Positions 2,370 to 46,536 of a DNA stretch of 64,000 nt are shown here, piece after piece. Each line of letters starts with the position of its first letter. Position 1 is the stretch's first letter. This stretch comes from Candidatus Magasanikbacteria bacterium RIFOXYC2_FULL_42_28. GTDB taxonomy: Bacteria; Patescibacteriota; Patescibacteriia; Magasanikbacterales; GWA2-37-8. Below the pieces are notes generated by a model. The model saw only the letters and a program-made list of their open reading frames with translations. It did no database searches and was not told the DNA's origin. A program made the translations under genes and the position numbers. The stretch is from positions 105,960 through 169,959 of the forward strand of contig MFQZ01000010.1 of the NCBI GenBank assembly GCA_001784435.1, read 5' to 3'.

Positions 2370-4826
2370 ATGTTAATTTCCTATAATTGGCTCAAAGAGC
2401 ATTGTGATTTACCGGCCGGGTTAACTCCGGCGGAATTAGGCGATAAATTTAAATTGGCAGTGGTTGAAGTTGAAAAAATTGTGAGCGAAGGTGAGAATTT
2501 GGAAAATATTGTCGTGGGCAAAGTGGTGTCGGCTGAGAAACACCCCAATGCTGATAAATTAAAAGTTTGTAAAGTTGATGCCGGTGGTGAATTGGTTCAG
2601 GTAGTGTGTGGTGGATCCAATGTTGCCGAAGGAATGCTCGTGGCGTTTGCGCCGATCGGTGCGAAAGTGCGCTGGCATGGGGAAGGGGATTTGGTGGAAT
2701 TAACCGAAGCGACTATTCGGGGCGAAAAATCATATGGCATGATTTGCGCTTCTACTGAAATTGGTTTGGGCGAAAAATTCCCGCTGAAAGACGAAAAAGA
2801 AATTTTAGATTTGACTTTTTTGAAATTAAAAGTGGGAACGCATTTGAAAACTGCTCTGAAATTAAACGACGCAGTTTTAGAAATTGACAACAAGTCGCTT
2901 TCGCACCGTCCGGATTTATGGGGGCACTTGGGTTTGGCGCGCGAGGCGGCCGCTTTGTTTAGTCGTCAATTGAAAGAATTGAAATTAGGGAAAATTAAGC
3001 CGGGCAAAAGTGTTTCTCTGTCGGTAAAAGTGGAAGATACTAAATTGTGTCCGCGTTATTTGGCGGTTGCGCTCGCCGGTATAAAAGTAGCGCCGTCGCC
3101 TGATTGGCTGCAGAGCCGATTGTTGACGGTGGGAATTAACCCCATCAATAATATCGTGGATATTACCAATTATGTCATGTTGGATTTGGGGCAACCGATG
3201 CACGCCTTTGACGCTTCGCGTATTGCTGTCATCCCAACGAAAGTCGGGATCTCTGTCCGTCTTGCAAAATCCGGTGAAACCATCGTCGCTTTAGACAAAA
3301 AAGAATACAAATTAACTGAAAATGATTTGGTAATCGCCACTGCCGAGCGTCCGATTGCTATTGCCGGCGTGATGGGCGCTTTGAATAGCGGAGTAACCGA
3401 CGCGACGGAAACTATTATTTTTGAATCAGCTAATTTTAATCCGGTGAGTGTGCGTAAGACCTCCACGCGTTTAAATTTGCGTTCGGACAGCGCGCAACGG
3501 TTTGAAAAATCCTTGGATCCTAATTTGTGCGAAATCGCGTTGCAAAAAGCCGTGGCCATGACTTTGGAAATTTGTCCGGGCGCGTCGGTAGCGAGCAAGG
3601 TTATTGATGAAAAACATTTTTCTCTATTCACCGGACCGCTCTTAATGCCGAAAAATATTTTTGAAAAAAAATTAGGCGTGGTTATTCCGCCCAAAAGAAT
3701 TAAAGAAATTTTAGAAAAATTGGGGTTTGTCGTTACTGAAAAAAAAGACGAATTGTCAGTCAAAATTCCCACTTGGCGCGCGACCAAAGATATTGCCATT
3801 GCCGAAGATATTGTGGAAGAAGTGGGGCGGATTTACGGTTTTAGCAATATTCCCGGCACGTTACCAACATTCCCGATTACTCCGGCTAGTTTAACACCGG
3901 TGCAAAAATTACAGCGCACGGTAAAAGATGTTTTGGTGCGCGAGTTGGGTTATTCGGAAATGTATAATTATTCGTTCGTGAGTGCGGAGCAAATTGTTCG
4001 TTCCGGAGATAACGTGGCAAACTATTTAGAGCTGGACAATCCGATTTCCAAAGAGAAACCATTTTTGCGGAGAAATCTGCTTTTAAATTTAATGGAAAAT
4101 CTTGAAAGAAATATCAATTCGGCTGAAGTAATAAAATTATTTGAAATTGGCAAAATATTTCAACCTGAAGAAGCCGGGCCACGCGCAGACAGCAACGGTG
4201 ATGAATTATTGCCCCGTCAAGATACCTGGTTGGGCGCAGTTAACGTAGAAAAAAAGAATGACACTCCTTTTTGGGAAGCGCGACGAGTCGCCGAGATTAT
4301 CACTCGCGAGCTTGGTGTTACAGTCAAATTTGTGCCAGGAGAAACTCTTTCGATGGCGCCTTATCAACATCCGGGGCGGACTGCTTGGATTTATGCCGGC
4401 GATAGTTTAGTCGGACGAGTGTGGGAGCTGCATCCGAAAGTTGCCGCTAATTTTAATTTTCCTTACCGGGTGGGTGTGTGTGGTTTTAACCTAAATATTT
4501 TGGCCGATAAACAGAGGGAGGCCCGCATTTTTAAACCGTTGTCACTGTATCCAGAAGTAAAACGCGATGTTGCTTTTGTCGTGTATACAAAAATTGTTCA
4601 TGTGGAAGTTGAGAAAGCGCTTGCTGGAATTGATCCGCTTGTGAAAGGCGTAGAATTGTTTGATGTATATACTGGCAAGAATTTGGGCGCAGGCAAAAAA
4701 AGTATGGCCTATCGTTTAACACTTTTAAATTCCGAGCGGACTTTGGAGTCCAAAGAAGTGGATGTGGTGATGGATAAGGCGACAAAAATGTTAGTTGAAA
4801 ATTTTGGGGCGGAGATGCGGGGGTAA
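2370..4826 (+). CDS. pheT: phenylalanine--tRNA ligase beta subunit
   Basis: Starts MLISYNWLKEHCDL; B3/B4, tRNA-binding and FDX-ACB-like regions; upstream ORF extension to 2304 is encoded by a repeat and rejected. Confidence 0.9.
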   Translation: MLISYNWLKEHCDLPAGLTPAELGDKFKLAVVEVEKIVSEGENLENIVVGKVVSAEKHPNADKLKVCKVDAGGELVQVVCGGSNVAEGMLVAFAPIGAKVRWHGEGDLVELTEATIRGEKSYGMICASTEIGLGEKFPLKDEKEILDLTFLKLKVGTHLKTALKLNDAVLEIDNKSLSHRPDLWGHLGLAREAAALFSRQLKELKLGKIKPGKSVSLSVKVEDTKLCPRYLAVALAGIKVAPSPDWLQSRLLTVGINPINNIVDITNYVMLDLGQPMHAFDASRIAVIPTKVGISVRLAKSGETIVALDKKEYKLTENDLVIATAERPIAIAGVMGALNSGVTDATETIIFESANFNPVSVRKTSTRLNLRSDSAQRFEKSLDPNLCEIALQKAVAMTLEICPGASVASKVIDEKHFSLFTGPLLMPKNIFEKKLGVVIPPKRIKEILEKLGFVVTEKKDELSVKIPTWRATKDIAIAEDIVEEVGRIYGFSNIPGTLPTFPITPASLTPVQKLQRTVKDVLVRELGYSEMYNYSFVSAEQIVRSGDNVANYLELDNPISKEKPFLRRNLLLNLMENLERNINSAEVIKLFEIGKIFQPEEAGPRADSNGDELLPRQDTWLGAVNVEKKNDTPFWEARRVAEIITRELGVTVKFVPGETLSMAPYQHPGRTAWIYAGDSLVGRVWELHPKVAANFNFPYRVGVCGFNLNILADKQREARIFKPLSLYPEVKRDVAFVVYTKIVHVEVEKALAGIDPLVKGVELFDVYTGKNLGAGKKSMAYRLTLLNSERTLESKEVDVVMDKATKMLVENFGAEMRG
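3227..3261. repeat. family A repeat (tgtcatcccaacgaaagtcgggatctctgtccgtc) in frame inside pheT
   Basis: Matches intergenic copies at 27772, 30744, 15337; encodes VIPTKVGISVRL within the PheT B3/B4 region. Confidence 0.7.
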
Positions 4827-4830
4827 TTGT

Positions 4831-4868
4831 TTGTCATTCCGACCGAGTGTAGCGAGCGGAGGAATCCC
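4831..4868. repeat. family A-like repeat (ttgtcattccgaccgagtgtagcgagcggaggaatccc)
   Basis: Sequence similarity to the other tgtcatYccga...ggaatc copies. Confidence 0.6.
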
Positions 4869-4889
4869 TTAGTATTTAATAATTTGTGT

Positions 4890-5625: not shown

Positions 5626-5785
5626 CTATTTATCAAGAAGAGACGAGGGAATTGGCCCGTTGACTCTCTACCAACCTAACTTCGGTTAAGGTGGTAATTC
5701 CAAACCCATTAGGGGAAAGATATGTCTTCCGGCACTGCCGGAAGAAAATTAGATTTCTTATCCTTGGGTAAGATTTTTTTTATTG
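5626..5785 (+). promoter_or_regulatory. SAM-I (S-box) riboswitch aptamer plus hairpin/T8 terminator
   Basis: TTATCAAGAAGAGACGAGGGAATTGGCCCG...CAACC...GGTGGTAATTCC...GAAAGATA matches the SAM-I consensus (UUAUCAAGAGNGG.GGAGGGA.UGGCCC...GCAACC...GGUGCUAAUUCC); followed by hairpins and TTTTTTTT at 5774-5781. Confidence 0.65.
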
Positions 5786-6858: not shown

Positions 6859-6958
6859 ACTCACATGTCATGCTGAACTTGTTTCAGCATCTCTCGGTAT
6901 CACAAGGGATCCTGAAATAAATTTAGGATGACAACTAATTTTTAAAGGAGGAAAAAAT

Positions 6959-7345
6959 ATGTTAGAAACATCCAAAGACATTTTGTATCTCGTGATTTCT
7001 TTTTGCGTTTTGTGGACAACCGTATTTTTGTGCTGGGTATTTTATTATGTCATGCGTCTACTGCGCAACACCAACCAAATCGTAGAAGAATTTCGTGTGC
7101 GTCTGCAGGCGTTAACCGAAGCGATAAATTATATCCGCGGTAAAGTAGAGCACATGTCCGGACTAATGACTTTAATTACCGACGGCGCGGCAGGACTGGC
7201 CAAAAAATTTGTGGCGCGCAAAGCCGGGGAGTGGGGTCAAGCGGGCGCGGATAAATTTGACGAAGCAGCCAAAGACGCGGTTAGTAAAGCGGTGGCGGCG
7301 ACAGCCAAGGGGATGCGCGGGGCGGTGAAGAAGATGAAAAGGTAA
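6959..7345 (+). CDS. small membrane protein (N-terminal TM helix, Ala/Lys-rich amphipathic C-terminus), function unknown
   Basis: Strong RBS AAAGGAGGAAAAAATATG; hydrophobic segment ILYLVISFCVLWTTVFLCWVFYYV. Confidence 0.5.
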   Translation: MLETSKDILYLVISFCVLWTTVFLCWVFYYVMRLLRNTNQIVEEFRVRLQALTEAINYIRGKVEHMSGLMTLITDGAAGLAKKFVARKAGEWGQAGADKFDEAAKDAVSKAVAATAKGMRGAVKKMKR

Positions 7346-7346
7346 T

Positions 7347-7451
7347 TTCAAAATTCCAATATCCAATTTCCAATCAAATCCAAATGTCCAACCGTTTTGA
7401 TATTTTAATTTTGACATTGATTTGACATTGGAAATTGGATATTTGATATTT
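7347..7451. repeat. family D AT-rich palindromic element (ccaatatccaatttccaatcaaatccaaa ... tttgacattggaaattggatattt)
   Basis: Imperfect inverted repeat; related copies at 39326-39440, 53787-53852, 55826-55925. Confidence 0.7.
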
Positions 7452-7456
7452 ATATA

Positions 7457-7530: not shown

Positions 7531-8814
7531 ATGTTAATCGCCGATCTCCACATCCACTCTCGCTATTCCCGCGCCTGCTCGCCGGAATTGAATTTGGCTA
7601 ATATTGCTAAATGGTGCCAAATTAAGGGGATAAATTTGGTGTCTACCGGGGATTTTACCCACCCGGCTTGGATTGAAGAAATTAAGCGGGATTTGGAGGA
7701 AGTTGGGAATGGGTTTTTAAAGTTGAAACTCCCACCCCCTCCTACCTCCCCCTCGGGCAGGGGGAGGAACGATGACGTTCGATTTATCCTCGGCACCGAA
7801 GTATCTTGTATTTATTCCCAAGGTGGCAAAACCCGCCGCGTGCATTTACTTTTATTTTTTCCAAAAATTTCGGACGTGGAAAAATTTAATTCGGCACTCA
7901 CGAAAGAAGGTTGTAATATCCGCGCGGACGGTCGGCCAATTTTAGGACTTACAGCCAAAGAGGTTTTGCAAATAATGAAAGATATCAATCCAAAATCCGT
8001 GCTGATTCCGGCGCACGCTTGGACGCCGTGGTTCGCGGTGTTTGGTTCCAAATCCGGCTATGACAGTTTGGAAGAATGTTTTGAAGAGCTAACGCCGGAA
8101 ATTTTTGCGATTGAAACTGGCTTGTCCAGCGACCCGCCAATGAATTGGCGTCTGTCGGCTTTGGACAAAATTACTTTAATTTCCAATTCGGACGCACACA
8201 GTTTGCCAAATTTGGGGCGCGAGGCCAATATGTTTAATTTGGATATTGCCAAAACAAATTACGATGAATTTTTTGGAGCGATTAAAAACAAAGACAGCGA
8301 ACTATTTTTAAAAACGATTGAATTTTATCCGGAAGAGGGGATGTACCATGTGGATGGCCACCGCGCTTGCGATTTTAGTTGTACGCCAACGCAAACTAAA
8401 AAATTGGGCGGATTATGTCCCAAATGTAAAAAATCTTTGACCGTCGGTGTATTATCGCAAGTGGAAAAATTGGCCGATCGGCCGGAAGGGTATCGTCCGC
8501 CGGACGCGATTCCGTATGTGAGTTTGGTGGAATTAGATAAAATTATCGCACAAGCATTGGGGGTGAAAAGCCGTAAAAGCGTTAAGGTGCAGGCCGAATA
8601 TGAAAAATTAATAAAATACCACAACGAGTTTGAAATTTTATTGGATTTGTCGTATGATGAGCTCGCAAAAATTACCACGCCAATTATCGTAGAAGGAATA
8701 AAACGCGTGCGCGAAGGCAAACTAAAAATCACGCCCGGGTTTGACGGCGAGTATGGTCGGGTGGAAATTTTTACTGATGACGAGAGAAAGGAATTCCAGG
8801 GTAAATTATTTTAA
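7531..8814 (+). CDS. PHP-domain protein with Cys4 zinc ribbon, EndoQ-like
   Basis: N-terminal PHP motif MLIADLHIHSRYSRA, HAWTP, Cys cluster C..C...CPKC, C-terminal GFDGEYG; architecture resembles endonuclease Q; family C repeat inserted in frame (PPPPTSPSGRGRNDD). Confidence 0.5.
   Translation: MLIADLHIHSRYSRACSPELNLANIAKWCQIKGINLVSTGDFTHPAWIEEIKRDLEEVGNGFLKLKLPPPPTSPSGRGRNDDVRFILGTEVSCIYSQGGKTRRVHLLLFFPKISDVEKFNSALTKEGCNIRADGRPILGLTAKEVLQIMKDINPKSVLIPAHAWTPWFAVFGSKSGYDSLEECFEELTPEIFAIETGLSSDPPMNWRLSALDKITLISNSDAHSLPNLGREANMFNLDIAKTNYDEFFGAIKNKDSELFLKTIEFYPEEGMYHVDGHRACDFSCTPTQTKKLGGLCPKCKKSLTVGVLSQVEKLADRPEGYRPPDAIPYVSLVELDKIIAQALGVKSRKSVKVQAEYEKLIKYHNEFEILLDLSYDELAKITTPIIVEGIKRVREGKLKITPGFDGEYGRVEIFTDDERKEFQGKLF
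7730..7770. repeat. family C GC-rich palindromic repeat (reverse orientation) inside PHP gene
   Basis: cccaccccctcctacctccccctcgggcagggggagg is the reverse complement of the copies at 31131, 44666, 59581. Confidence 0.7.
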
Positions 8815-14605: not shown

Positions 14606-15733
14606 TTATTCTATTTCCCAATTCGGATCAGCATTAAGAATTCGCCAATCGGTGAATTCTTTTTTTTGCGCTTGGTAATATCCAGCGACGGCGATCATGG
14701 CGGCGTTGTCCATGCAATATTTTAAATTTGGAATAAGTAGTTCATGGCCAATAGATTGCGATTCGTGAGCGAGCGTTTCGCGCAACTTTTCATTGGCCGC
14801 CACGCCACCACCCAAAATTATAGTTTTAGGATTATAAAGTTTGGCGGCTTTTAAAGTTTTGCCTACCAAGACATCAACAATTGCTTGTTCAAAAGACGCG
14901 CAGAAGTCGTTGACACTCGGTTTGTCATTGCGAGGAGTGAAACTACGAAGCAATCCCATGACTGTTGGCCAGAGATTGCCGCGCTCCCTACGGTCGCTCG
15001 CAATGACAGTGCCGGCGAGTTTATTATCGCGCAACCAATACAGAGCCGCTGTTTTTAATCCGGAAAAACTAAACTCCAAATTATCATCTTTTAGCATCGG
15101 CCGTGGAAAATCAATCGCGTCCGTTCGTCCGGTCTTCGCCAACTCCGAAATTTTTGGTCCACCCGGGTATTCTAACTCTAAAAGTTTTGCCACTTTATCA
15201 AAACATTCACCGGCGGCATCATCACGCGTCGCGCCGATTTTTTTGTATTCATTTGCCGAGTTCATTAAAATTAATTCCGTATGCCCACCACTCACAATCA
15301 GTGCGAGCGCCGGATATTCAATTGTCGTCACCGTATTGTCATCCCGATGAAAATCGGGATCTCTGTCCGTCTGTATTTCCACCGAGTGGCTGTGCCCCCA
15401 AATATGATTAACCGCAACAATAGGCACATTCCAAACCATACTCAAAGTCCGCGCCGCCTCTACGCCAACAATTAAACCGGTAATTAGTCCCGGTCCAGCC
15501 GTAACAGCAATCACATCCGGCCGTGGTTGGTTTTTTAAAACCTCTTCAATCAAAGGCACAATCTTCTCCGCGTGCGCTCTACCAGCCAATTCCGGCACCA
15601 CCCCACCATATTTTTTATGCAAATCAATTTGCGATACTGCCGATTCACGAACAACAAAACAGCCCTCGGGAGAACAATCCACAAGGGCCACCGCGGTATC
15701 GTCGCAAGATGATTCAATGCCGAGAATCAACAT
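14606..15733 (-). CDS. tsaD: tRNA N6-adenosine threonylcarbamoyltransferase
   Basis: MLILGIESSCDDTAVALV and the Kae1/YgjD fold; carries two in-frame repeat insertions. Confidence 0.9.
   Translation of the reverse strand: MLILGIESSCDDTAVALVDCSPEGCFVVRESAVSQIDLHKKYGGVVPELAGRAHAEKIVPLIEEVLKNQPRPDVIAVTAGPGLITGLIVGVEAARTLSMVWNVPIVAVNHIWGHSHSVEIQTDRDPDFHRDDNTVTTIEYPALALIVSGGHTELILMNSANEYKKIGATRDDAAGECFDKVAKLLELEYPGGPKISELAKTGRTDAIDFPRPMLKDDNLEFSFSGLKTAALYWLRDNKLAGTVIASDRRERGNLWPTVMGLLRSFTPRNDKPSVNDFCASFEQAIVDVLVGKTLKAAKLYNPKTIILGGGVAANEKLRETLAHESQSIGHELLIPNLKYCMDNAAMIAVAGYYQAQKKEFTDWRILNADPNWEIE
14922..15009. repeat. family B palindromic repeat in frame inside tsaD
   Basis: ttgtcattgcgag...ctcgcaatgaca; encodes about 29 aa (..DRRERGNLWPTVMGLLRSFTPRNDK) on the - strand. 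Confidence 0.7.
15337..15372. repeat. family A repeat in frame inside tsaD
   Basis: ttgtcatcccgatgaaaatcgggatctctgtccgtctg; encodes TDRDPDFHRDDNT on the - strand. Confidence 0.75.
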
Positions 15734-21562: not shown

Positions 21563-22405
21563 TCAATCGGCCAATATATTGGGGTTTTTGGTTGCTTCGG
21601 CTGGTGAGCGAGCATCGGTCAAACCGTATTCCCCAATTTGGGTCCTTGTCAAGGCCTGGCAGTAGGCCCCGGTGCCGAGTTTTTTGCCAATGTCTTCGGC
21701 GAGGGTGCGGATGTAAGTGCCGGCCGAGCAGGTGACTTCTATTGTTAAATTTGGCCAGACGTAGTCCAGAAGTTTGATGTCATAAATTTCAATTGCCGAT
21801 GGTTTGCGTTCCACGGTTTTGCCCACGCGAGCAAGTTCGTATAATTTTTTGCCAGCGATTTTTTTGGCGCTGTACATCGGGGGAACTTGCTTATTTTTGC
21901 CAATGAAAGATTTAATAATTTTTTGTGTTAGTTCTAGTGTCGGTGGAATTGGTGAGAGAATATTGAATATTGGATATTGAATATTAGTGTCCGGTCGTCC
22001 AATTGTCATTCCGACAGAGGCTCGCGCCGACGAGGAATCTCCATCCCGTCCAATTTTCTTTAATATCCAATATTTAATATTTAATATCCAAGACTTTTTT
22101 TGAAAGGGAATGATTGTCCCAGTGCAGTCGCCCGTATCCGAAACAGCGCCAAGCCGTATCGTCGCCACATAAGTTTTTCGTAAATTTTTAAATTCATCCA
22201 ACCGCTTAGTCGCCTCGCGCCCCACGCCCACAATTAACAAACCAGTCGCAAACGGATCCAAAGTGCCAGCATGCCCCACCCGAATATTTTTTGGCGCGCC
22301 GTTATTAATCAAATTTTTACGAATAAACCCAACCACATCAAAACTAGTCCAGTTGATTGGTTTATTGATAAGGAGGAAATTTGTGGGTAATTGTGTTTTG
22401 GTCAT
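21563..22405 (-). CDS. truB: tRNA pseudouridine(55) synthase
   Basis: GHAGTLDPFATGLLIVGVG catalytic motif; about 45 aa in-frame insert from a composite repeat. Confidence 0.9.
   Translation of the reverse strand: MTKTQLPTNFLLINKPINWTSFDVVGFIRKNLINNGAPKNIRVGHAGTLDPFATGLLIVGVGREATKRLDEFKNLRKTYVATIRLGAVSDTGDCTGTIIPFQKKSWILNIKYWILKKIGRDGDSSSARASVGMTIGRPDTNIQYPIFNILSPIPPTLELTQKIIKSFIGKNKQVPPMYSAKKIAGKKLYELARVGKTVERKPSAIEIYDIKLLDYVWPNLTIEVTCSAGTYIRTLAEDIGKKLGTGAYCQALTRTQIGEYGLTDARSPAEATKNPNILAD
21959..22092. repeat. composite MITE-like element inside truB: AT-rich inverted arms (attgaatattggatattgaatatt / aatatccaatatttaatattt) flanking a family A core
   Basis: Core tgtcattccgacagaggctcgcgccgacgaggaatctccatcccgtc; translated in frame as SWILNIKYWILKKIGRDGDSSSARASVGMTIGRPDTNIQYPIFNILSPI. 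Confidence 0.75.
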
Positions 22406-22501: not shown

Positions 22502-22735
22502 ATGTCAAAATCTTTACACTACAATTTATTTTTTCGCCCAGAACCGGAAGGCGGTTTTACAGTCGTAGTGCCGGCTTTGCCGGGTTGTGTTAGTTACGGG
22601 CGCGATTTAAACGAAGCCCAAGCAATGGCTACTGACGCTATTGGCGCGTATTTAAAAAGTGTGCGCAAACATCGCGGTGATGTTGTCAGTGATAAAAATA
22701 GTTTTATCTCTTCGGTAGATGTCGCTTATGCCTAA
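22502..22735 (+). CDS. hicB: HicB-family antitoxin
   Basis: YNLFFRPEPEGGFTVVVPALPGCVSYGRDLNEAQAMATDAIGAYL (UPF0150/HicB fold). Confidence 0.65.
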   Translation: MSKSLHYNLFFRPEPEGGFTVVVPALPGCVSYGRDLNEAQAMATDAIGAYLKSVRKHRGDVVSDKNSFISSVDVAYA

Positions 22736-22931
22736 AACGCCGCGGTTAACTTCCAAACAAGTAATAAAAATTTTGGAAAATAACGATTTTGTTTTAGATC
22801 ATGTTTTCGGAAGCCACTATGTTTTTTATCGTGCTTCTGATAAAAGGCGAGCGGTGGTACCGTATCATACCAAAAATTTACCGATTGGGACTTTAAAAAG
22901 TATTTTGCGTTCGGCGGAGATTGAGATTTAG
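22728..22931 (+). CDS. hicA: HicA-family toxin
   Basis: MPKTPRLTSKQVIKILENNDFVLDHVFGSHYVF...VVPYHTKNLPIGTLKSILRSAEI matches the HicA consensus. Confidence 0.7.
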   Translation: MPKTPRLTSKQVIKILENNDFVLDHVFGSHYVFYRASDKRRAVVPYHTKNLPIGTLKSILRSAEIEI

Positions 22932-22972
22932 TAATTTTGTCATCTCCGTGAAAACGCGGATCCAGTCGCAGA

Positions 22973-23002
22973 TTGTCATTGCGAGCAAAGCGAAGCAATC
23001 TG
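22973..23002. repeat. family B repeat (ttgtcattgcgagcaaagcgaagcaatctg), preceded by an A-like degenerate copy at 22936-22971
   Basis: Sequence identity to the other B copies. Confidence 0.65.
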
Positions 23003-23080
23003 TACAACAGGCGTAACGTCTGTTTTTTGTTTGCATATTTAGCTCTGCCTCGTAAAGCCATAGCAAAAATGGTGACAGCC

Positions 23081-27771: not shown

Positions 27772-27825
27772 TTGTCATCCCGAGTGAGGACTCCCGACTT
27801 AGTCGGGACGAGGGATCTCTGTCCA
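27772..27825. repeat. family A repeat (ttgtcatcccgagtgaggactcccgacttagtcgggacgagggatctctgtcc)
   Basis: Intergenic copy upstream of trxA. Confidence 0.75.
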
Positions 27826-30743: not shown

Positions 30744-30775
30744 TGTCATCCCGATGAAAATCGGGATCTCTGTCT
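30744..30775. repeat. family A repeat (tgtcatcccgatgaaaatcgggatctctgtcta) abutting the mutM start
   Basis: Identical core to the copy in tsaD. Confidence 0.8.
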
Positions 30776-31690
30776 ATGCCCGAACTTCCCGAAGTAGAAA
30801 CAGTTCGCCGTGATTTGGAAAAAGTTTTGGTTGGTAAAAAAATCACGGCAGTAGAAATTTTAGATAAAAAAATTGTCGGCGGTAAACCGGCAGTTTTTGT
30901 GTCGGCTGTAAATGGTAAGAAAATTGTTGGGGTGGAGCGAAGAGGGAAATTATTGGCGTTTAAATTAAGTAGCGGTGAATATTTGTTAGCGCATCTGAAA
31001 ATGACCGGGCAGTTGATTTGTGTTTCATTGTCATTGCGAGCGAAGCGCGGCAATCTCATCGCCGGCGGTCACCAAGTTGGTAAAAACGATTTAACTGTGC
31101 CAAACAAATTCACGCGCGTCATTTTTGCATTTTCCCCTCCTGCCCGAGGAGGGGCGAGGGGTGGTGGGAGCGTTGGTGGCACACTATATTTCAACGACCT
31201 CCGTCGTTTCGGTTATTTAAAAGTTGTATCGGCGGAAGAAAAAGAAACCATATTTAAAAATAATTTTGGTATTGAACCATTGACACCCGATTTTAAATTA
31301 TCAGCTTTTACAAAAATATTTCGAAACCGTAAAACCAATTTAAAAGCGATTTTGATGAATCAAAAATTAATTTCTGGCTTGGGGAATATTTACGTGGACG
31401 AGGCCTGTTTTAACGCTGGACTTTTACCGTGGCGATCGGCTAAGTCACTAAAACCGCCAGAAATTAAAAAATTATTTTCTTGTATTCAAAAAGTAATCGC
31501 CGTGGCCATTAAAAATCGCGGCACCACTTTTAAAGATTTTCGCGATGGCGCGGGTGGGCGCGGGGCGCATTATAATTTTCTTAATGTGTATGGGCGCAAA
31601 GGTGAAAAATGCCGGAAGTGTAAAAATTTTATAAAAAAGACCAAACACGCCGGGCGGGGGACGCATTTTTGTCCGAAATGTCAGCGGTAA
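30776..31690 (+). CDS. mutM: formamidopyrimidine-DNA glycosylase
   Basis: MPELPEVETVRR N terminus, H2TH region and C-terminal zinc finger CRKCKN..C..C; two in-frame repeat insertions. Confidence 0.85.
   Translation: MPELPEVETVRRDLEKVLVGKKITAVEILDKKIVGGKPAVFVSAVNGKKIVGVERRGKLLAFKLSSGEYLLAHLKMTGQLICVSLSLRAKRGNLIAGGHQVGKNDLTVPNKFTRVIFAFSPPARGGARGGGSVGGTLYFNDLRRFGYLKVVSAEEKETIFKNNFGIEPLTPDFKLSAFTKIFRNRKTNLKAILMNQKLISGLGNIYVDEACFNAGLLPWRSAKSLKPPEIKKLFSCIQKVIAVAIKNRGTTFKDFRDGAGGRGAHYNFLNVYGRKGEKCRKCKNFIKKTKHAGRGTHFCPKCQR
31028..31056. repeat. family B repeat in frame inside mutM
   Basis: ttgtcattgcgagcgaagcgcggcaatctc encodes CVSLSLRAKRGNLIAG. Confidence 0.75.
31131..31172. repeat. family C repeat in frame inside mutM
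   Basis: ttttcccctcctgcccgaggaggggcgaggggtggtgggagcg encodes FSPPARGGARGGGSVG. Confidence 0.75.
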
Positions 31691-31752
31691 TTTGCCTTTT
31701 TCCCTATATTTTAGTACAATACGATTACCGTTTAATGGTAATTTTTTGTTAT

Positions 31753-34700
31753 ATGTCAAAATACGATCATAAAAAAATAGAAGCAAAATGGAAGAAAAAT
31801 TGGGAAAAGTCCGGGATATATAAAACCGGCGACCCATCCTTCGCTAAGGATTCGGCGGGCAAGCCCAAGTATTATGTCTTGGACATGTTTCCGTATCCAT
31901 CAGGCGCGGGTTTGCATGTCGGCCACCCCAAGGGTTTTATCGCCACCGACATTGTCGCGCGTTTAAAAATGATGCAAGGGTACAATGTTTTGCACCCGAT
32001 GGGTTGGGACGCGTTTGGGCTACCGGCGGAAAATTATGCTTTGAAAAATAAAGTTCATCCGGCGGACGCGACTGCCGAAAATATTAAAGTTTTTAAAAAA
32101 CAATTAGGCCTTTTGGGTTTTACTTATGATTGGAGCAGGGAAGTGAATACGACTGATCCAGAATATTATAAATGGACCCAGTGGATATTTTTACAATTAT
32201 TTAAAAAGGGTCTGGCGTTTGAATCTTACGAACCGATTAATTGGTGCCCGTCGTGCAAAACCGGTTTGGCTAATGAAGATTTGGAAGATGGGAAATGTGA
32301 GCGCTGTGGGAGCGTGGTAGAACAAAAACCTTTGCGCCAATGGGTATTGAAAATTACCGATTATGCCGAGCGTTTGCTCAATGATATTGAATTATTAAAA
32401 GAATGGCCCGAGCCGATTAAAGAAATGCAGAGAAATTGGATTGGACGCAAGGAGGGTATAAATATCGTATATCAAATTGAGGGGTCGGATAAAAAAGTTA
32501 TTTGTTTCACCACTCGTCCTGACACAAATTTCGGTGCTACTTTTGTTGTGGTTGGCCCGGAACATTCTTTGATTTCATCAATAACAACATCGGAGTATAA
32601 AGAAGATGTAGAAAAATATGTATCCGCCGCTAAAAATAAAACAGAATTAGATAGAATTGCGGAAGGTAGAGAGAAAAGTGGTGTGTTTACCGGTTCGTAT
32701 TGCATAAATAATTTGACTGATTATAAAATGCCGATTTGGGTGGCTGATTATGTGTTAGGCAATGTAGGAACTGGCATGGTAGTAGGTGTGCCGGGACATG
32801 ATAAACGCGATTTTGAATTTGCCAATAAATTTGGTATTGAAATAAAAAGAGTGGTGGTGGCCGGTGATGGTGATACGTCGCCTATTACTAAAATAGAACA
32901 GGTGCAGGAACATGAAGGGGAAATGATAAATTCTGGATTTTTGGATGGTTTAGATATTCACGATGCTACACGTAAGATAATGGATCGTTTAGAAGAAAAA
33001 GGATGGGGTAAGCGAGTGATTAATTATAAATTACGCGATTGGGTTTTTTCGCGCCAACGTTATTGGGGGGAGCCGATACCGCTCGTGCATTGTGAAGTGT
33101 GCAAAAATAAAAAATATAATTACATTATTTTACACGGATATACCGGTACGGCCGATCAAAATGGACCGGGTAGAGGCGATTCTAATAATTGGCGCCCGTG
33201 GGTAAAAGTTAAATTAGAAGAACGTGGCAATAAAGTTTTTTGTCCTAATCTTCCAAACACTAATGAACCAAATATAGATGAACAAGTGCAATATGTTATA
33301 GACAATGTTAATTTTGAGATAGACGAAAACACGGTTATAGTTGGGCATAGTTTGGGTGGAGTAGTGATATATAAACTGTTGGAAAAATTAAATAAGAAAG
33401 TTGGCAAAGTATTGTTAGTTGATCCGGTAGTAAGTCCCGAGTTTCCGGACAAAGAAAGACTAAATGTAAAAAAGAGTTGTGACTGGAAATTTAATTTTGA
33501 GAAGATAAAAAAATTAAGTGATGATTTTGTTGTTTTGGGTGCGTCTGATTTTGCGACTATCTTTGAAAAAGATTTAAGATTTGTGGCCGATAAACTGGAA
33601 GCAAATTTAGTTTTAGCTAAACCAGCGGAAGGGCATTTTACAGCTGAAGAAGAGCCGGTCGTATTAAATTTATTAAATAATACTGGCTGGTACCCAGTCC
33701 CAGAAAAAGACCTGCCACTTGAATTGCCAAAAGTAAAAAATTATGAACCGACTGGAACCGGGGAATCGCCACTCGCGGGAATTGATAAGTGGGTGAATAC
33801 ATTATGTCCTCATTGTGGCGGGCCGGCGAAACGTGAAACCAATACCATGCCACAGTGGGCGGGGAGTTGTTGGTATTATTTGCGCTATGAAGATCCGCAT
33901 AACAGTAAAGCACTCGTGGATAAAGATAAAGAAAAATATTGGTCGCCGGTGGATTTTTATGTTGGTGGCGCCGAACACGCCACGCGCCATTTAATTTACG
34001 CGCGGTTTTGGCATAAGTTTTTATTTGATATTGGGGCGGTTAGCAATATTGAGCCGTTTACCAAATTACAAAGTGTGGGTTTGATTCTGGCCGAAGACGG
34101 GCGCAAGATGAGTAAGCGTTGGAATAATGTAATTAATCCCGATGATGTTGTGGCTGAATTTGGCGCGGACGCGATGCGTTTGTATGAAATGTTTATGGGG
34201 CCATTTGATCAGGCTTGCGCTTGGAGTACGAAAGGTGTGATTGGGTGTCGGCGGTTTTTGGAAAAGGTTTGGGTGCTGGGCGAGAAGATTAAAGATGAAA
34301 GATTGAAGATTAATGGTGATAATAATAAAAATATTGAGATATTATTAAACCAAACAATCAAAAAAGTTACCGAAGACATTCCAGCGATGCGATTTAACAC
34401 GGCCATCGCGCAACTGATGATTTTTGCGAATGAGGCTTCACAATCTTCTATCTTAAATCTTCAATCTTTCGCTTCATTCCTCCAACTTCTCGCTCCATTT
34501 GCTCCGCATATGACAGAAGAGCTGTGGGCAAATTTAGGCAACAAAGAAAGTATTTTTAAATCCGCGTGGCCGAAATTTGACCCCACCAAAATTCAACATT
34601 CCGAAATTACCGTCGTCGTTCAAGTAAACGGTAAGCTGCGCGATGAAATAATTGTGCCAGTTGATATTGCCGAAGCCGATGCCAAAGCGCGGGCGCTTTC

Positions 34701-34788
34701 AACAGAAAAAATTAAAAAATGGTTAGATGGCAAAGAGCCGAAGAAAGTGATTTATGTGAAAGGGAAGCTCGTGAGTATAGTGGTGTAG
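31753..34788 (+). CDS. leuS: leucine--tRNA ligase with an embedded alpha/beta serine-hydrolase domain
   Basis: HIGH region (HVGHPKG), CP1 editing motifs TTRPDT and GTGMVVGVPGHDKRDFEFA, KMSKR; start at ATG 31753 (MSKYDHKKIEAKW); about 190 aa longer than a typical bacterial LeuS. Confidence 0.9.
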   Translation: MSKYDHKKIEAKWKKNWEKSGIYKTGDPSFAKDSAGKPKYYVLDMFPYPSGAGLHVGHPKGFIATDIVARLKMMQGYNVLHPMGWDAFGLPAENYALKNKVHPADATAENIKVFKKQLGLLGFTYDWSREVNTTDPEYYKWTQWIFLQLFKKGLAFESYEPINWCPSCKTGLANEDLEDGKCERCGSVVEQKPLRQWVLKITDYAERLLNDIELLKEWPEPIKEMQRNWIGRKEGINIVYQIEGSDKKVICFTTRPDTNFGATFVVVGPEHSLISSITTSEYKEDVEKYVSAAKNKTELDRIAEGREKSGVFTGSYCINNLTDYKMPIWVADYVLGNVGTGMVVGVPGHDKRDFEFANKFGIEIKRVVVAGDGDTSPITKIEQVQEHEGEMINSGFLDGLDIHDATRKIMDRLEEKGWGKRVINYKLRDWVFSRQRYWGEPIPLVHCEVCKNKKYNYIILHGYTGTADQNGPGRGDSNNWRPWVKVKLEERGNKVFCPNLPNTNEPNIDEQVQYVIDNVNFEIDENTVIVGHSLGGVVIYKLLEKLNKKVGKVLLVDPVVSPEFPDKERLNVKKSCDWKFNFEKIKKLSDDFVVLGASDFATIFEKDLRFVADKLEANLVLAKPAEGHFTAEEEPVVLNLLNNTGWYPVPEKDLPLELPKVKNYEPTGTGESPLAGIDKWVNTLCPHCGGPAKRETNTMPQWAGSCWYYLRYEDPHNSKALVDKDKEKYWSPVDFYVGGAEHATRHLIYARFWHKFLFDIGAVSNIEPFTKLQSVGLILAEDGRKMSKRWNNVINPDDVVAEFGADAMRLYEMFMGPFDQACAWSTKGVIGCRRFLEKVWVLGEKIKDERLKINGDNNKNIEILLNQTIKKVTEDIPAMRFNTAIAQLMIFANEASQSSILNLQSFASFLQLLAPFAPHMTEELWANLGNKESIFKSAWPKFDPTKIQHSEITVVVQVNGKLRDEIIVPVDIAEADAKARALSTEKIKKWLDGKEPKKVIYVKGKLVSIVV
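33105..33690 (+). other. YdeN/RBBP9-like alpha/beta serine hydrolase domain inserted within LeuS
   Basis: IILHGYTG...NWRPWVK...VIVGHSLGG (nucleophile elbow)...LGASDF...AEGHF (Ser-Asp-His candidates); sits between PIPLVHCEVC and the C-terminal CPHCGG...WYYLRY region. Confidence 0.6.
34441..34475. repeat. short tandem-repeat-like insert (caatcttctatcttaaatcttcaatcttt) in frame in the leuS 3' region
   Basis: Same aatcttcaatctta motif as the trxA upstream tandem repeat; encodes SQSSILNLQSF. Confidence 0.6.
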
Positions 34789-34790
34789 GT

Positions 34791-36272
34791 ATGAACTTAA
34801 AGGAGGGGGCCGAAAAAATTTATAATTCCAAAAGCCGCAGTTTTTTAATTTACTGCGGCTTTTTTATCTTAGGGGCGGCGATATTTTCTTTGGGCGAAAC
34901 GCGCGGGGATAAATTAAATTATTTATTGGTCGGAATTTTACTCGCGTTTTTTTTATTATCATTTTTATTTAAAAATCATCTCGGACGATTTGGCGCGATC
35001 ATTTTACTTTTATTTTGTTTGGGCGCGATGCGGGCGGTCGCGGTTTTGCCAAGCGGTAGCGCGGATGAAGTCGCGAGTATTATTGGTAAGCAAATTACTT
35101 TGGAAGGCCATGTCGCCAAAGTGGAAAAACCCGGCCAATATATTTTTGCGCCGGATAATTATCATGGGAAAATTCTGGTAAATTATGGTCCGTATCCGAT
35201 TTACCATTACGGCGATAAGTGGCGATTGAATTGCGAGTTGGAAGCGCCGGCGCCGTATGAAGATTTTCGGTATGATAAATATTTATTAAATAAAGGCGTG
35301 TATGTTATTTGTAAGTTCCCCAATGTAATTTTAACATCCGGATTTTCCGGCAACCGGTTAAAACAAGCAATTTTTAATTTTAAAAATATTGTCGGCGCGC
35401 GCGTCAATTTATTATGGCCCGAGCCGGAGTCGGGTTTAATGGCCGGATTATTGTATGGCGAAAAAAGTGCTCTGCCAGCCGAGTTATTAAATAATTTTAA
35501 TCGCACCGGACTAACGCATATTATTGCTGTGTCCGGTTATAATACTTCGGTAATTGTAGTCGCAGTTTTGGCCGGATTAATTTTTGTCGGATTTTGGCGC
35601 AAGCAGGCGTTGTGGTTATCGGCGTTAATTATTTTTGCGTTTGTAATTTTTACCGGCGCGACGGCGTCGGTCGTGCGCGCGGCACTTCTCGCGTGCATTG
35701 GTATCACCGCCCAACTATTAGGCCGGCCGGCTCGTTCGCTTAATGGTTTGGTATTCGCGGCTGCGCTAATGATTTTATTTCATCCGTTAATTATTTGGTA
35801 TGACGCCGGTTTTCAATTATCGTTTCTCGCTGTAATTGGCGTGATGTATTTGGGCCCAAAGTTGGCTGTGATTTTTAAATTTGAAAATGAGGAAAATATG
35901 TTGTGCACAACTATGGGTGCGATAATTTTGACTTTGCCTTTGCTCGCTTATCAATTCGGCCGCGTATCACTGGTAGCACCCCTGTCCAATTTTTTGATTT
36001 TATGGATTATCCCGTTTTTGATGCTATCCGGTTTTATTGCCGCGTTAATCGGTTTAATTTTTTTACCAGCCGGACAGGCATTGGCGTTTATTGCGTATTT
36101 AGGGTTAAAATATGTTATAATAACAGTGAATTGGTTAGGCGGATTAGCGTTTGCTTCGCGGGAAATTTCCTTGTCAATTTATTTAATGGTTTTGGCTTAT
36201 ATTTTAATTTTTTGGTTTTTAATATTCTATGGCAAAAAAAATAAAAATTCTACCATCAGACACGGGCTATGA
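34791..36272 (+). CDS. comEC: ComEC/Rec2-family membrane protein (DUF4131 + competence domains, no MBL domain)
   Basis: Polytopic membrane protein with the LTHIIAVSGYNTSV competence motif; start ATG 34791 right after the leuS stop. Confidence 0.7.
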   Translation: MNLKEGAEKIYNSKSRSFLIYCGFFILGAAIFSLGETRGDKLNYLLVGILLAFFLLSFLFKNHLGRFGAIILLLFCLGAMRAVAVLPSGSADEVASIIGKQITLEGHVAKVEKPGQYIFAPDNYHGKILVNYGPYPIYHYGDKWRLNCELEAPAPYEDFRYDKYLLNKGVYVICKFPNVILTSGFSGNRLKQAIFNFKNIVGARVNLLWPEPESGLMAGLLYGEKSALPAELLNNFNRTGLTHIIAVSGYNTSVIVVAVLAGLIFVGFWRKQALWLSALIIFAFVIFTGATASVVRAALLACIGITAQLLGRPARSLNGLVFAAALMILFHPLIIWYDAGFQLSFLAVIGVMYLGPKLAVIFKFENEENMLCTTMGAIILTLPLLAYQFGRVSLVAPLSNFLILWIIPFLMLSGFIAALIGLIFLPAGQALAFIAYLGLKYVIITVNWLGGLAFASREISLSIYLMVLAYILIFWFLIFYGKKNKNSTIRHGL

Positions 36273-36837
36273 TTTAGCCGCGCCGCGTTATGATGACAAA
36301 GAAGATTATTTGAATAGTTTTGAGCAGGGAAAAGTTTTGACATATTTGCAGGATGTTGCCGGGAAAAAGGTTCTGGATGTTGGTGCTGGCACCGGAAGAT
36401 TGTCGGTGGAATTAAGCCGACGCGGAGCGCTCGTGACGGCACTAGATGTATCTTCGGAAATGCTAAAAGTTTTGGCCAAGAAAAATAAATATATTGAATT
36501 AGCAATCGGAGACGCGGAGTATTTACCTTTTGGTAATGAAGTTTTTGATTATGTGATCGCGACTTTTTTGATTGTGCACTTGCGCGATCCAAAACAATTT
36601 TTTGATGAAGCGTATCGGGTATTAAAAGATGGCGGGCGATTAATTGTTACCAATATCAATCAAGCCGAAGCGCCGGAAGTAGAAACAGACGCGGGGCCAA
36701 TTAAAATTGAATCGTTTTATCATCGACCGGAAGCGGTCATGAAAAAATTGGAAGAATTGGCGTATACGATTGAAAAAGAAGATATGGTGTTTGAGGGGGA
36801 TGTGTGGGTGAATCAGATTTTGGTGGCTAAAAAATAA
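36229..36837 (+). CDS. class I SAM-dependent methyltransferase
   Basis: VLDVGAGTGRLS motif I; DAEYLPFGNEVFDYV. Confidence 0.7.
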   Translation: MAKKIKILPSDTGYDLAAPRYDDKEDYLNSFEQGKVLTYLQDVAGKKVLDVGAGTGRLSVELSRRGALVTALDVSSEMLKVLAKKNKYIELAIGDAEYLPFGNEVFDYVIATFLIVHLRDPKQFFDEAYRVLKDGGRLIVTNINQAEAPEVETDAGPIKIESFYHRPEAVMKKLEELAYTIEKEDMVFEGDVWVNQILVAKK

Positions 36838-36843
36838 AATTAT

Positions 36844-37010
36844 GAAAAATAATTACTTCTTCACACGGCGCTTCATCCTTTGAAAATTATCTCGTTTTTT
36901 CTTAAAAATCCACGCGTTTTTTCGCTATTTGCTCAAAAACACGGGATTTTTCTCAAAAAAACTCGTAATTTTCTAAAGTTCTCCGCGGTGTGTTCAGAAG
37001 TAATTATTTT
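36844..37010. repeat. MITE-like element with about 27 bp terminal inverted repeats (aaaataattacttcttcacacggcg / cgcggtgtgttcagaagtaattatttt) and three internal GTTTTTTC..AAAAAC units
   Basis: Inverted repeats seen directly; sits between the methyltransferase and the MBL gene. Confidence 0.45.
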
Positions 37011-37023
37011 ATCTCGGTAATTT

Positions 37024-37872
37024 ATGTTTTCTAAATTTAAAATCATTTTAATTATTTTAGCGATTATCGTTGCCACATTTTTTATTTACGATGACTGGCA
37101 AAAATATCACGACAAAAATTTCCAAGTGATTTTTTTAAACATCGGCCAAGGCGACAGCGCTTTAATTAAATTTCGCAACGGTGAAAAAATGTTGGTAGAT
37201 TGCGGGCCGAATAATACCGTTTTGGCGCGACTCTCCACGTACCTATCTTTTTTTGACCGCACGATTGATTATTTGGTGGTAACCCATCCGGACTTAGATC
37301 ATTATGGTGGTTGTGTGGATGTGTTGCGCCGATATAAAGTAAAAAATATTATTGAAAACGGCGACACGAAGAATGATTCGTATTTTAGAGAGTGGCAAAA
37401 CCTGGCTGACGTGGAAGGCGCCAAGCGTTTTATTCAGACCGAACGTCATGCCACTGAAATTGGTGGCACAAAAATTGATTGGTTGGCGCCTGACCAGGGT
37501 GTGATAGTGGATAATCCCGATAGTAATAATCGCTCTATTGTTTTTAAATTAACTGATGATAAAAAAAGTTTTTTGTTAACCGGTGACGCAGAAATGCCAC
37601 TGGAAAATGCTTTACTGAAAAAATATTGCGCCACGTTGAGCGCCTGTCCTGCGCTTCAATCTGAATACCTAAAAGTCGGCCACCACGGTTCAGATTCATC
37701 TTCTGGCGCCGAGTGGCTATCGACCATCGCGCCTAAAGTCGGGATTGTTTCCGTGGGTAAGAATAAATTCGGGCATCCGTCGTTACGGGTAATGAGGAAT
37801 TTACAGCGGGTGGGAGCAGGGATATTGCGAACGGATGAGATTGGTGATATTACAGTGAATACAGCCATTTGA
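37024..37872 (+). CDS. metallo-beta-lactamase-fold protein (ComEC C-terminal-domain-like), N-terminal TM
   Basis: VVTHPDLDHYGG motif; LKVGHHGS; resembles the ComEC Lactamase_B domain. Confidence 0.65.
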   Translation: MFSKFKIILIILAIIVATFFIYDDWQKYHDKNFQVIFLNIGQGDSALIKFRNGEKMLVDCGPNNTVLARLSTYLSFFDRTIDYLVVTHPDLDHYGGCVDVLRRYKVKNIIENGDTKNDSYFREWQNLADVEGAKRFIQTERHATEIGGTKIDWLAPDQGVIVDNPDSNNRSIVFKLTDDKKSFLLTGDAEMPLENALLKKYCATLSACPALQSEYLKVGHHGSDSSSGAEWLSTIAPKVGIVSVGKNKFGHPSLRVMRNLQRVGAGILRTDEIGDITVNTAI

Positions 37873-39310: not shown

Positions 39311-39325
39311 AATATTTATTAATAA

Positions 39326-39440
39326 TTTCAAAATCCAAATTTCCAATTTCCAAATTAATGTCTAAGCTAAAATAACAAATTTGACATTTAGATTTTGGAT
39401 TTTGTTTGACATTGGATATTGGATATTTGACATTTAAATT
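39326..39440. repeat. family D AT-rich palindromic element
   Basis: caaaatccaaatttccaatttccaaa ... tttgacattggatattggatatttgacattt; produces spurious MEIWIL ORFs. Confidence 0.7.
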
Positions 39441-42642: not shown

Positions 42643-44612
<1,970 letters not shown>

Positions 44613-44665
44613 AAAATGTAAAATGTAAATATCAAAAATCAAAATTAGCGAGTTTTCCGTTCGTT

Positions 44666-44708
44666 GTCTCCCCCTGCCCGAGGGGGAGAATAAGAGGGGG
44701 TGGGAGCG
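44666..44708. repeat. family C repeat downstream of groEL
   Basis: ccccctgcccgagggggagaataagagggggtgggagcgg. Confidence 0.7.
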
Positions 44709-44730
44709 GATTCTTTATTCGCACAACCAC

Positions 44731-44764
44731 AAAAATAATCGACCGCTCGGTCGGTTATTTTTTT
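44731..44764 (+). terminator. conserved terminator module T (aaaaataatcgaccgctcggtcggttatttttt), copy 1
   Basis: Perfect hairpin plus T-run; identical copies at 46498 and 47715; degenerate copy at 50138. Confidence 0.7.
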
Positions 44765-44803
44765 GTTTGCCTTGCAAGGCCATAGCCCGCAGGGCGACGG
44801 CTT

Positions 44804-44849
44804 GTGGATAACTTTATTTGCCAAATACGGTCGGGGGGGGGGGTATACT
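44804..44849 (+). promoter_or_regulatory. conserved promoter module copy 2: TGTGGATAA - TTGCCA - 20 nt spacer ending in G11 - TATACT
   Basis: G-run at 44833-44843. Confidence 0.45.
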
Positions 44850-44884
44850 TAATTACGAGAGAATTTATTATTAATTATAAAATT

Positions 44885-45814: not shown

Positions 45815-46006
45815 AACAGTATAATTGATTTATAAAAACGGATTTAAATATCCGTTTTTTAGTTAAAAAATGTATGAGTTGTATTAGCTATTTCGTGATT
45901 AGGGATTTTAATCTTTTGATTTTATTGGGTTCTTGACAAAAAGTAAGAAATATGATACAATAAGAATGTAGTAAAGTAATACTTTCTTACTCATCAATTT
46001 TATTTT

Positions 46007-46243
46007 ATGGAAACTACTGTTCAAAAAACCACCACCAAAGGCCAAATCACTTTGCCCAAACACTGGCGCGATCAGTTTAAAACCAATCATTTCGCCATGA
46101 TGCCGCAGGATGATTTTTTGATTATTCGGCCGTTGTCGTTGGATGACGAGGATAATTATATTAGTGTGTTTGACGCCAAACGCGACAATCGGGGCAAAGG
46201 TATGCCAGCTAAAAAGTTATTGAAAATTTTAAAGTCCGTTTAA
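46007..46243 (+). CDS. AbrB/MazE/SpoVT-type antitoxin
   Basis: TTKGQITLPKHWRDQF looped-hinge motif; precedes a RelE toxin with 1-nt spacing. Confidence 0.6.
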   Translation: METTVQKTTTKGQITLPKHWRDQFKTNHFAMMPQDDFLIIRPLSLDDEDNYISVFDAKRDNRGKGMPAKKLLKILKSV

Positions 46244-46244
46244 A

Positions 46245-46487: not shown

Positions 46488-46497
46488 TTGTGATAAT

Positions 46498-46531: not shown

Positions 46532-46536
46532 TATCT

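Follow-up and report, generated by a model that had tools for sequence, protein, structure and literature searches.

The 64-kb stretch of DNA analysed here (the window) belongs to Candidatus Magasanikbacteria and carries, on its minus strand at 14606-15733, an open reading frame (ORF) of 375 aa that corresponds to tsaD. TsaD is the tRNA t6A37 threonylcarbamoyltransferase. The product was recognized by the Pfam TsaD family (E=4e-86) and matched solved bacterial TsaD structures (E~1e-74); its exact database match was OGH87548.1, from a Candidatus Magasanikbacteria metagenome-assembled genome. Two segments of this gene were found to be in-frame copies of hairpin repeats, as the earlier note on this DNA had proposed. 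Translation in the tsaD frame continues through both without a stop codon, and T. maritima TsaD has neither.

The shorter segment is a single hairpin unit of family A, located on the plus strand at 15337-15372 and supported by its repeat match, its DNA fold and the model confidence of the encoded residues. The core (15337-15367) reads TGTCATCCCGATGAAAATCGGGATCTCTGTC and the tail extends to 15372. The unit is composed of a TGTC tag (15337-15340), the stem ATCCCGAT (15341-15348), a GAAA loop (15349-15352), the stem ATCGGGAT (15353-15360), a single C (15361) and the tail TCTGTCCGTC. Four of its six frames are open, and the minus-strand translation within tsaD is TDRDPDFHRDDNT (aa 122-134). The core was claimed to be identical to an intergenic copy at 30744, and this was borne out over 31 of 31 nt (30744-30774), while none of 100 shuffles gave such a match. 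Close copies are present in the window at 3227 and 52622. As single-stranded DNA, the tsaD unit folds with -7.6 kcal/mol (z=-4.0); the stability of family A hairpins corresponded to z values of -4.0 and -5.4.

The longer segment, of family B, spans 86 nt (14923-15008), so that the coordinates given previously (14922-15009) were right to within one base. Its ends form a perfect 12-nt inverted repeat, TGTCATTGCGAG / CTCGCAATGACA, and this terminus occurs in 8 copies in the window, against 0.25 expected. The segment is a dimer made of a left unit on the plus strand (14923-14957, TGTCATTGCGAGGAGTGAAACTACGAAGCAATCCC) and an inverted right unit (14972-15008), which reads TGTCATTGCGAGCGACCGTAGGGAGCGCGGCAATCTC on the minus strand. 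It encodes approximately aa 242-270, VIASDRRERGNLWPTVMGLLRSFTPRND, and its DNA fold was estimated at -18.6 kcal/mol (z=-3.6). Compared with the closest orthologue without the insert (P0003), the insertion amounts to 32 codons (96 nt) rather than 29. The two segments had been described as two different repeat families. They are indeed two distinct copies, but they are not unrelated, since the family B element is a tags-outward pair whose units share the architecture of family A.

Alignment with solved TsaD structures placed both segments as extra loops. In the alignment with T. maritima TsaD, query residues 238-269 had no counterpart, chain residues 223 and 224 being adjacent, and the family A site (site A) fell in a 10-residue gap. 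The metal-binding residues H110, H114 and D342 were invariant in the TsaD alignment. An AlphaFold2 model built with 28 homologues reached a mean predicted local distance difference test score (pLDDT) of 87.8; values below 50 were restricted to residues 124-133 and 246-268, which are the two inserts. The best Foldseek match of the model was E. coli YgjD (4wq5), with a template modelling score of 0.93 at 2.4 Å. The enzyme core thus looks intact in the model, and both inserts are predicted to be floppy or disordered extra loops. Translation of the inserts would yield junction peptides such as VEIQTDRDPDFHR and LAGTVIASDR.

In order to follow the inserts among relatives, a codon alignment was made of the window tsaD and the three closest orthologues with obtainable DNA (P0002, P0003 and P0004). 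The family B insert is missing from P0003 (72% identical), which reads ...GAT AAT AAA | AAA TAT..., and P0002 and P0004 have it, 86 nt long as in the window and at the same position. The P0004 copy has diverged in its interior and agrees with the window in the terminal 19-22 nt, next to synonymous sites that differ. The unit at site A of P0003 and P0004 is of another type, TGTCATTCCGAG...GAGGAATC, similar to that at window position 50080, and the P0003 unit has another offset and another codon phase (ATG ACA instead of xAT GAC A). The differing types, offsets and phases imply at least two or three separate events at this loop among four close relatives. For the family B dimer, P0003 does not serve as a clean empty site, as the whole ancestral loop is gone and the insertion boundaries are unreadable.

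A wider comparison of 120 TsaD homologues showed that site A spans 12-49 residues and the family B site (site B) 8-62 residues. Dimer-type peptides, beginning with VI or CH and ending in [RQ][ND]D, were found at site B in approximately 24 of the 120 homologues, with many different interiors and with offsets varying by 0-3 residues; unit-type peptides occupied site A in about 10. Many orthologues contain no unit at all. The same tsaD insert was recovered in independent assemblies from other samples, and the P0002 gene has additional repeat-derived inserts at two other positions. The region of tsaD around aa 175-294 (~14850-15210) shares 94-100% nucleotide identity with P0002 (L002:10001-11248), the rest of the gene only 77-83%. 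This contrast indicates that tsaD is a mosaic gene, the block in common with P0002 being a recent recombination tract. Because the dimer shared with P0002 lies within that tract, it does not count as independent evidence. The recurrence of in-frame insertion is nevertheless strongly supported. Different units in different codon phases occupy the same two loops in orthologues, and in-frame units also occur in pheT, truB, fpg, rsmA, the uncharacterised ORF 41343 and the gene of a DUF4015 protein. The idea of a recurrent process, put forward on the basis of the two tsaD segments, was therefore upheld, and a comparison of orthologues for the same residues without repeat nucleotide similarity did not refute the insertion.

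The units of the window follow a common plan: a TGTC tag, a stem starting with AT, a loop, the complementary stem and a C, often with TCTGTC next. A generic scan for GTCAT, a 5-nt stem, its complement and then C returned 20 units in the window, compared with 2.0 in shuffles. All 20 begin with TGTC, including the unit at 15337 and both units of 14923-15008. In the family B and D units the perfect stem is limited to 5 bp, starts with AT and encloses an interior of 12-20 nt, often with GCGAAGC. The tails are CTC or CCC, of which the first C alone is constant. The window contains ten to twelve single units and six dimers, whose tags all face outward. Of the 16 element loci, about half are intragenic. 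Since coding DNA accounts for ~90% of the window, intergenic DNA still has approximately ten times as many loci per base, which is what removal of most intragenic copies by selection would lead one to expect.

Rfam, searched with the whole window at gathering thresholds, returned only two tRNAs and an S-adenosylmethionine (SAM) riboswitch, and with the tsaD region at E<=10 nothing relevant, so that the hairpin units are not a described RNA family. A full-text literature search on the repeat sequences and the encoded peptide motifs, and another combining Patescibacteria with repetitive extragenic palindromes (REPs), gave nothing relevant either. The units do resemble the CGTC-tagged REPs defined by Di Nocera, De Gregorio and Rocco in 2013, in many of which the tag is TGTC (PMC3733652). 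Their stems of 8-9 bp begin with two A-T pairs, their loops measure 4-5 nt, an unpaired 3-nt tail has the consensus CCA, and dimers are frequent. They include Neisseria dRS3 and R. conorii RPE-4/RPE-6, no associated transposase was found for them, and the 2013 survey covered 5 phyla, mainly Alphaproteobacteria. Intragenic copies, sometimes two per gene, encode 8-10 aa as single units and 20-30 aa as dimers, with peptides such as VIPAKAGI, SFLRKQES...LDSRFRGND and DPGLRRDD (PMC3733652). The window units share with them the unpaired TGTC tag and the A-T stem start, the 8-bp stem and 4-nt loop of family A being of the CGTC-1 type. Further common traits are the multi-copy, dispersed distribution, the existence of single units and of tags-outward dimers, which are common here, and the kinds of target gene, e.g. 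tRNA synthetases and truB. The outward orientation is implied for the published elements by the SFLRKQES...DSRFRGND peptides. The published VIPAKAGI and DSRFRGND are comparable to VIPTKVGI and DPDFHRDD of the window. On the other hand, the tails are CTC or CCC here instead of CCA, approximately half of the element loci of this window are intragenic, and the host is a Candidate Phyla Radiation bacterium.

A scan across species with TGTCATCCCGA-N3-7-TCGGGATCTC, taking one genome per species, matched at least 117 loci. The matches listed include Bacteroidota, Ignavibacteria, Spirochaetes, several classes of Proteobacteria, Planctomycetes, Nitrospirota, Chloroflexi and several Candidate Phyla Radiation groups. 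Considering all of these data, the tsaD segments are very probably CGTC/TGTC-tagged REPs, also described as dRS3/NTS, RPE-4/RPE-6 and Ssn-related motifs (SRMs), and this is the best overall explanation. Elements of this kind are known, and Candidatus Magasanikbacteria is a new host lineage for them.

Other repeat classes are less close. In-frame palindromes in genes were first described for Rickettsia, as the Rickettsia palindromic elements (RPEs) of Ogata et al. (2000 and 2002; cited through PMC10969869 and PMC3733652). By functional analogy, the window elements resemble them as in-frame palindromes in unrelated housekeeping genes of a small genome, at positions compatible with the protein fold. 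RPE-1 differs in having ~100-150 bp and its own consensus, whereas the units here measure 30-45 nt and the dimers 70-95 nt, and RPE-4 and RPE-6 are the only RPEs of the same tag family as the window units. Features in common with the GTAG REP/REPIN-RAYT and IS200/IS605 systems are a hairpin next to a 4-nt tag that is unpaired, inverted doublets that are likely to be the mobile form, the absence of target-site duplication and a strand-specific single-stranded DNA substrate. The tag here is TGTC, however, and the associated enzyme family is GIY-YIG, not HUH; no Y1_Tnp (Y1/HUH) domain was detected by Pfam in the ~50 ORFs of the window. Classical miniature inverted-repeat transposable elements derived from DDE transposons differ as well, since the window dimers have inverted termini but, in the seven aligned, no duplicated flanking bases.

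The relation to GIY-YIG nucleases emerged from the neighbours of the units. Clustering of 1084 ORFs from the scan matches listed (117 unit-bearing loci) revealed no recurrent transposase near these loci. Small GIY-YIG genes among the matches listed had units on both sides in four of four cases, and this led to an independent association test on 80 metagenome loci, picked solely by similarity to small GIY-YIG proteins in genomes other than that of the window. In 62 of 69 loci the GIY-YIG gene had a unit within 200 nt on its upstream side, in 65 of 74 it had one on its downstream side, and in 50 of 63 on both. The flanks contained 6.5 units per kb, as against 0.30 per kb elsewhere, and the median distance to the gene was 33 nt for upstream units and 13 nt for downstream ones. 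Forward units precede the gene and reverse units follow it, with the tags therefore outward. The flanking units comprise the canonical TGTCATTCCCGCGAAAGCGGGAATCC and variants equal or close to window families A, B, D and E.

This association, re-derived here independently, reproduces that of Chenal et al. (2025), who described Ssn, a single-domain GIY-YIG protein (cd10448) that binds the NTS hairpin only as single-stranded DNA (PMC11893778). Binding is limited to one strand, cleavage takes place a few nucleotides upstream, and no base matters more for binding than the C just after the palindrome. NTS-ssnA-NTS forms an insertion sequence (IS)-like arrangement, and transformation in Neisseria is modulated by NTS/Ssn. 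The paper makes no mention of Patescibacteria or of protein inserts that are in frame (PMC11893778). The window units correspond to NTS and SRM elements in the HGTCWY tag, the hairpin, the C directly after the palindrome and the directionality, and small GIY-YIG genes are bordered by the same variants of the unit, whose tags face outward. The intragenic share differs sharply: only 2% of NTS are intragenic in N. meningitidis (PMC11893778), compared with about half of the loci here.

All single units of the window (3227, 4832, 15337, 22004, 22938, 22974, 27773, 30744, 31029, 50080 and 55742) lie on the plus strand, including those within the minus-strand genes tsaD and truB, and the only reverse-strand units are the second halves of dimers. 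GC skew was positive in 16 of 16 bins of 4 kb, from which it follows that the tag strand is the G-rich strand and has the sequence of the lagging-strand template. This polarity is reminiscent of the "peel and paste" mode of IS200/IS605, as it puts the tag strand on the lagging-strand template. Three more single units in relatives had the same polarity. The strict polarity in the window, with n of ~10-13, is suggestive only. In a crude test on 8-kb pieces from many phyla, 119 family A-like units were divided into 56 with positive and 63 with negative GC skew, and no link to the coding strand was seen; a general polarity is thus not shown. Should the polarity extend to the whole genome and switch at the origin and terminus, it would point to single-strand mobilisation that is coupled to the replication fork and carried out by an Ssn-type GIY-YIG nuclease, or to selection linked to such mobilisation; this reading appears rather doubtful.

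A likely course of events can be outlined. Copies would arrive often and at many places, and in essential genes only in-frame, stop-free copies in tolerant loops would survive. Given such survival of tolerated copies only, and the four open frames of the family A unit, the encoded peptides would be passengers. Spread would most likely proceed via single-stranded DNA, which a small GIY-YIG nuclease of the Ssn type would recognize in trans, and the gene-less dimers would be miniature derivatives of a unit-ssn-unit element. Existing inserts would also be carried between lineages by homologous recombination. Translational bypassing or splicing of the inserts was considered as well and found unlikely, since all intragenic copies keep the frame and are stop-free, features that would be unneeded under bypassing.

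Several observations weigh against assigning the tsaD segments to the CGTC/TGTC-tagged elements and their Ssn-dependent spread. The loops of family B (and D) are 12-20 nt long and internally structured, in contrast with the 4-5 nt of CGTC REPs. Neither tsaD element matches the published SRM pattern, HGTCWYN(0-2)YYVSBRHN(0-5)WNVSBRGN(0-2)RNCYNB, whose sole match in the window is 22938-22965; the window unit families extend the SRM definition, and the published pattern is too narrow for them. No target-site duplication was present at the flanks of seven aligned dimers, and no clean empty site was recovered among the orthologues compared, P0003 being without the whole loop. The element termini of P0004 are more conserved than nearby synonymous sites, which could reflect selection on DNA or RNA instead of neutrality. 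In the 64-kb window, neither an Ssn-like gene (tblastn, Pfam) nor a transposase (Pfam) was found. The closest relative carries, at L003:5007-5258 (also in L002), an 83-aa single-domain GIY-YIG gene that adjoins a tRNA and whose product is homologous to the Ssn-like set (hhalign 97%); this gene is preceded by AAAATCGG-type hairpins and is not flanked by TGTC units. Finally, we know of no demonstration of the mechanism by which an Ssn nuclease would copy the units.

The conserved termini bear directly on an alternative in which the elements have been co-opted, the DNA or mRNA hairpins or the encoded loops being useful in tsaD and other housekeeping genes. Ssn marking might limit recombination with incoming single-stranded DNA, as can be compared with Neisseria NTS, or the hairpins might modulate translation or mRNA decay. 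Such a use would account for the identity of the terminal 19-22 nt of family B in the window and P0004 next to differing synonymous sites, and for the repeated hits at both TsaD loops in the lineage. It would also agree with the location of all single units on one strand, with the DNA-uptake protein ComEC encoded in the window and with the effect of NTS/Ssn on transformation in Neisseria. The conserved termini are, however, equally explained by gene conversion among many copies, and unit types, positions and phases vary among close relatives, many orthologues being unit-free. The insert peptides are moreover predicted to be disordered, and the dimer-containing recombination tract was swapped between lineages. 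Co-option is consequently regarded as improbable.

That same tract, a 94-100% identical block shared with P0002 in a gene otherwise 77-83% identical, could be taken to mean that homologous recombination or gene conversion alone shuffles a few ancient inserts across lineages and loci, without any transposition-like process. The missing target-site duplications and clean empty site would fit, as would the lack of a mobilising enzyme gene in the window. Against this stand the units at unrelated loci without flanking homology, both between genes and in at least seven different genes, and the fact that the same loop holds different unit families, offsets and phases. Near-identical units are furthermore spread across many phyla, and units terminate the IS-like unit-GIY-YIG-unit arrangement, so that recombination alone is judged very improbable. 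Ordinary lineage-specific TsaD loops, or metagenome assembly artefacts with an incidental repeat similarity, might be suspected from the variable length of both sites in TsaD generally and from the metagenome-assembled source. This explanation is effectively refuted by the 31-nt exact match to an intergenic copy, absent from all shuffles, and by the perfect 12-nt terminal inverted repeat with its 8 occurrences; the same insert in independent assemblies of other samples and the intact frame and catalytic residues point in the same direction. Insertion of CGTC/TGTC-tagged elements accordingly remains the preferred interpretation. Its notable features in this host are the unusually high intragenic share, the hot spots in the TsaD loops and the strand polarity.

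The remaining intragenic elements of the window are distributed among six genes. In pheT, a family A-type unit on the plus strand (3227-3262) is in frame and encodes VIPTKVGISVR. The truB unit (22004-22050, plus strand) encodes DGDSSSARASVGMT in frame, within a ~49-aa insert with AT-rich palindrome arms, and that of fpg/mutM (31029-31058, plus strand) encodes SLSLRAKRGNL in frame, within an insert of ~32 aa. An in-frame dimer is present in ORF 41343 (41498-41571), an uncharacterised ORF of 333 aa, where it encodes VILSEAKDPLRSNVRDSSATPQND, and another in rsmA/ksgA (56255-56348), where it encodes CHFERGLKADEKSPS...DPPHSFGMT. The unit in the DUF4015 protein gene (55742-55808, plus strand) makes the C-terminal 22 residues and the stop codon. 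Compared with solved homologues, the extra residues amount to ~21 aa in RsmA, ~49 aa in TruB and ~32 aa in Fpg.

Intergenic dimers are located at 2288-2357, upstream of the true pheT start, whose B1/B2 unit types and their order are those of the tsaD dimer; at 6866-6932, of the TGTCATGCTGAACTTGTTTCAGCATC type; and at 52622-52701, composed of family A-type units and upstream of prfA. Single intergenic units, all on the plus strand, were found at 4832-4869 (between pheT and the next gene), 27773-27824 (with a long structured loop), 30744-30777 (the family A unit with the core identical to that of tsaD, between gdh and fpg) and 50080-50124 (of the TGTCATTCCGAG...GAGGAATC type). Two tandem single units (22938-22965 and 22974-23003) occupy 22938-23003, also on the plus strand and between genes. 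They are overlapped by a minus-strand ORF of 109 aa (22732-23061) without a Pfam match, whose translation is a chain of repeat peptides (LLRFARNDN, DPRFHGDD). This ORF is most likely spurious and lies over intergenic hairpin units.

A second, unrelated repeat family consists of AT-rich palindromes, TTCCAATTTCCAAT / ATTGGAAATTGG, which are mainly intergenic (7343-7455, 39323-39439, 53782-53878 and 55822-55937), with separate arms at 21959-21994 and 22046-22081. In truB, AT-rich arms flank the hairpin unit and are translated as ILNIKYWILK...NIQYPIFNIL. The site A peptides ISNFQFPISN and FNFQFSIFKIK of tsaD orthologues resemble this family. A third repeat, the G+C-rich hairpin CCCCTCC...CCCGAGGAGGGG, is present at 7736-7769 and 31131-31164; it is translated in fpg as SPPARGGARGGGS and also occurs in frame at two other sites in the tsaD gene of P0002 (L002), as RAPTLALPFLKREGN and APTPSLSPSRAGGE.

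Some other genes of the window deserve mention. Sua5/TsaC, which acts in the t6A pathway as TsaD does, is encoded at 53855-54460, 38 kb from tsaD. The region 34719-37872 contains ComEC, with Competence and DUF4131 domains, and a separate ORF with the metallo-beta-lactamase fold; DNA-uptake machinery is therefore encoded here. In the leucyl-tRNA synthetase (31669-34788, 1039 aa), an alpha/beta-hydrolase or Ser_hydrolase domain at residues ~486-660 sits between the editing domain and the remaining catalytic core. The SAM riboswitch (5627-5726, 63 bits) precedes an ORF weakly similar to the C-terminal domain of SAM hydroxide adenosyltransferase. The cluster at 44340-50180 has duplicated segments, of 300 nt at 46097/47313 (89%) and of 222 nt at 44340/49764 (85%), and a repeated terminator-like hairpin, AAAAATAATCGACCGCTCGGTCGGTTATTTTT. 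A conserved motif, TTATTTGCCAAA...GG(G)10TATAC, occurs before small ORFs at 23091, 44814, 46546 and 47796.

These findings join three literatures, on the in-frame palindromes of Rickettsia, on the "orphan" CGTC REPs and on the target hairpins of Ssn, to a group of abundant and poorly understood bacteria. Many odd low-complexity loops in the housekeeping proteins of the Candidate Phyla Radiation, such as VIPS.., ..RNDK, ..SLRSLGMT and CH.E..., would be repeat-derived passengers and not functional lineage inserts. Such loops affect how these proteins are annotated, aligned and placed in phylogenies and how their structures are predicted, and the repeats also make small spurious ORFs, e.g. that at 22732-23061. 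The high intragenic share and the strand polarity offer a concrete handle on the spread of Ssn-associated hairpins. If the polarity were genome-wide and flipped at the origin and terminus, the loops of housekeeping proteins would be the main reservoir of the units, intergenic DNA making up only ~10%.

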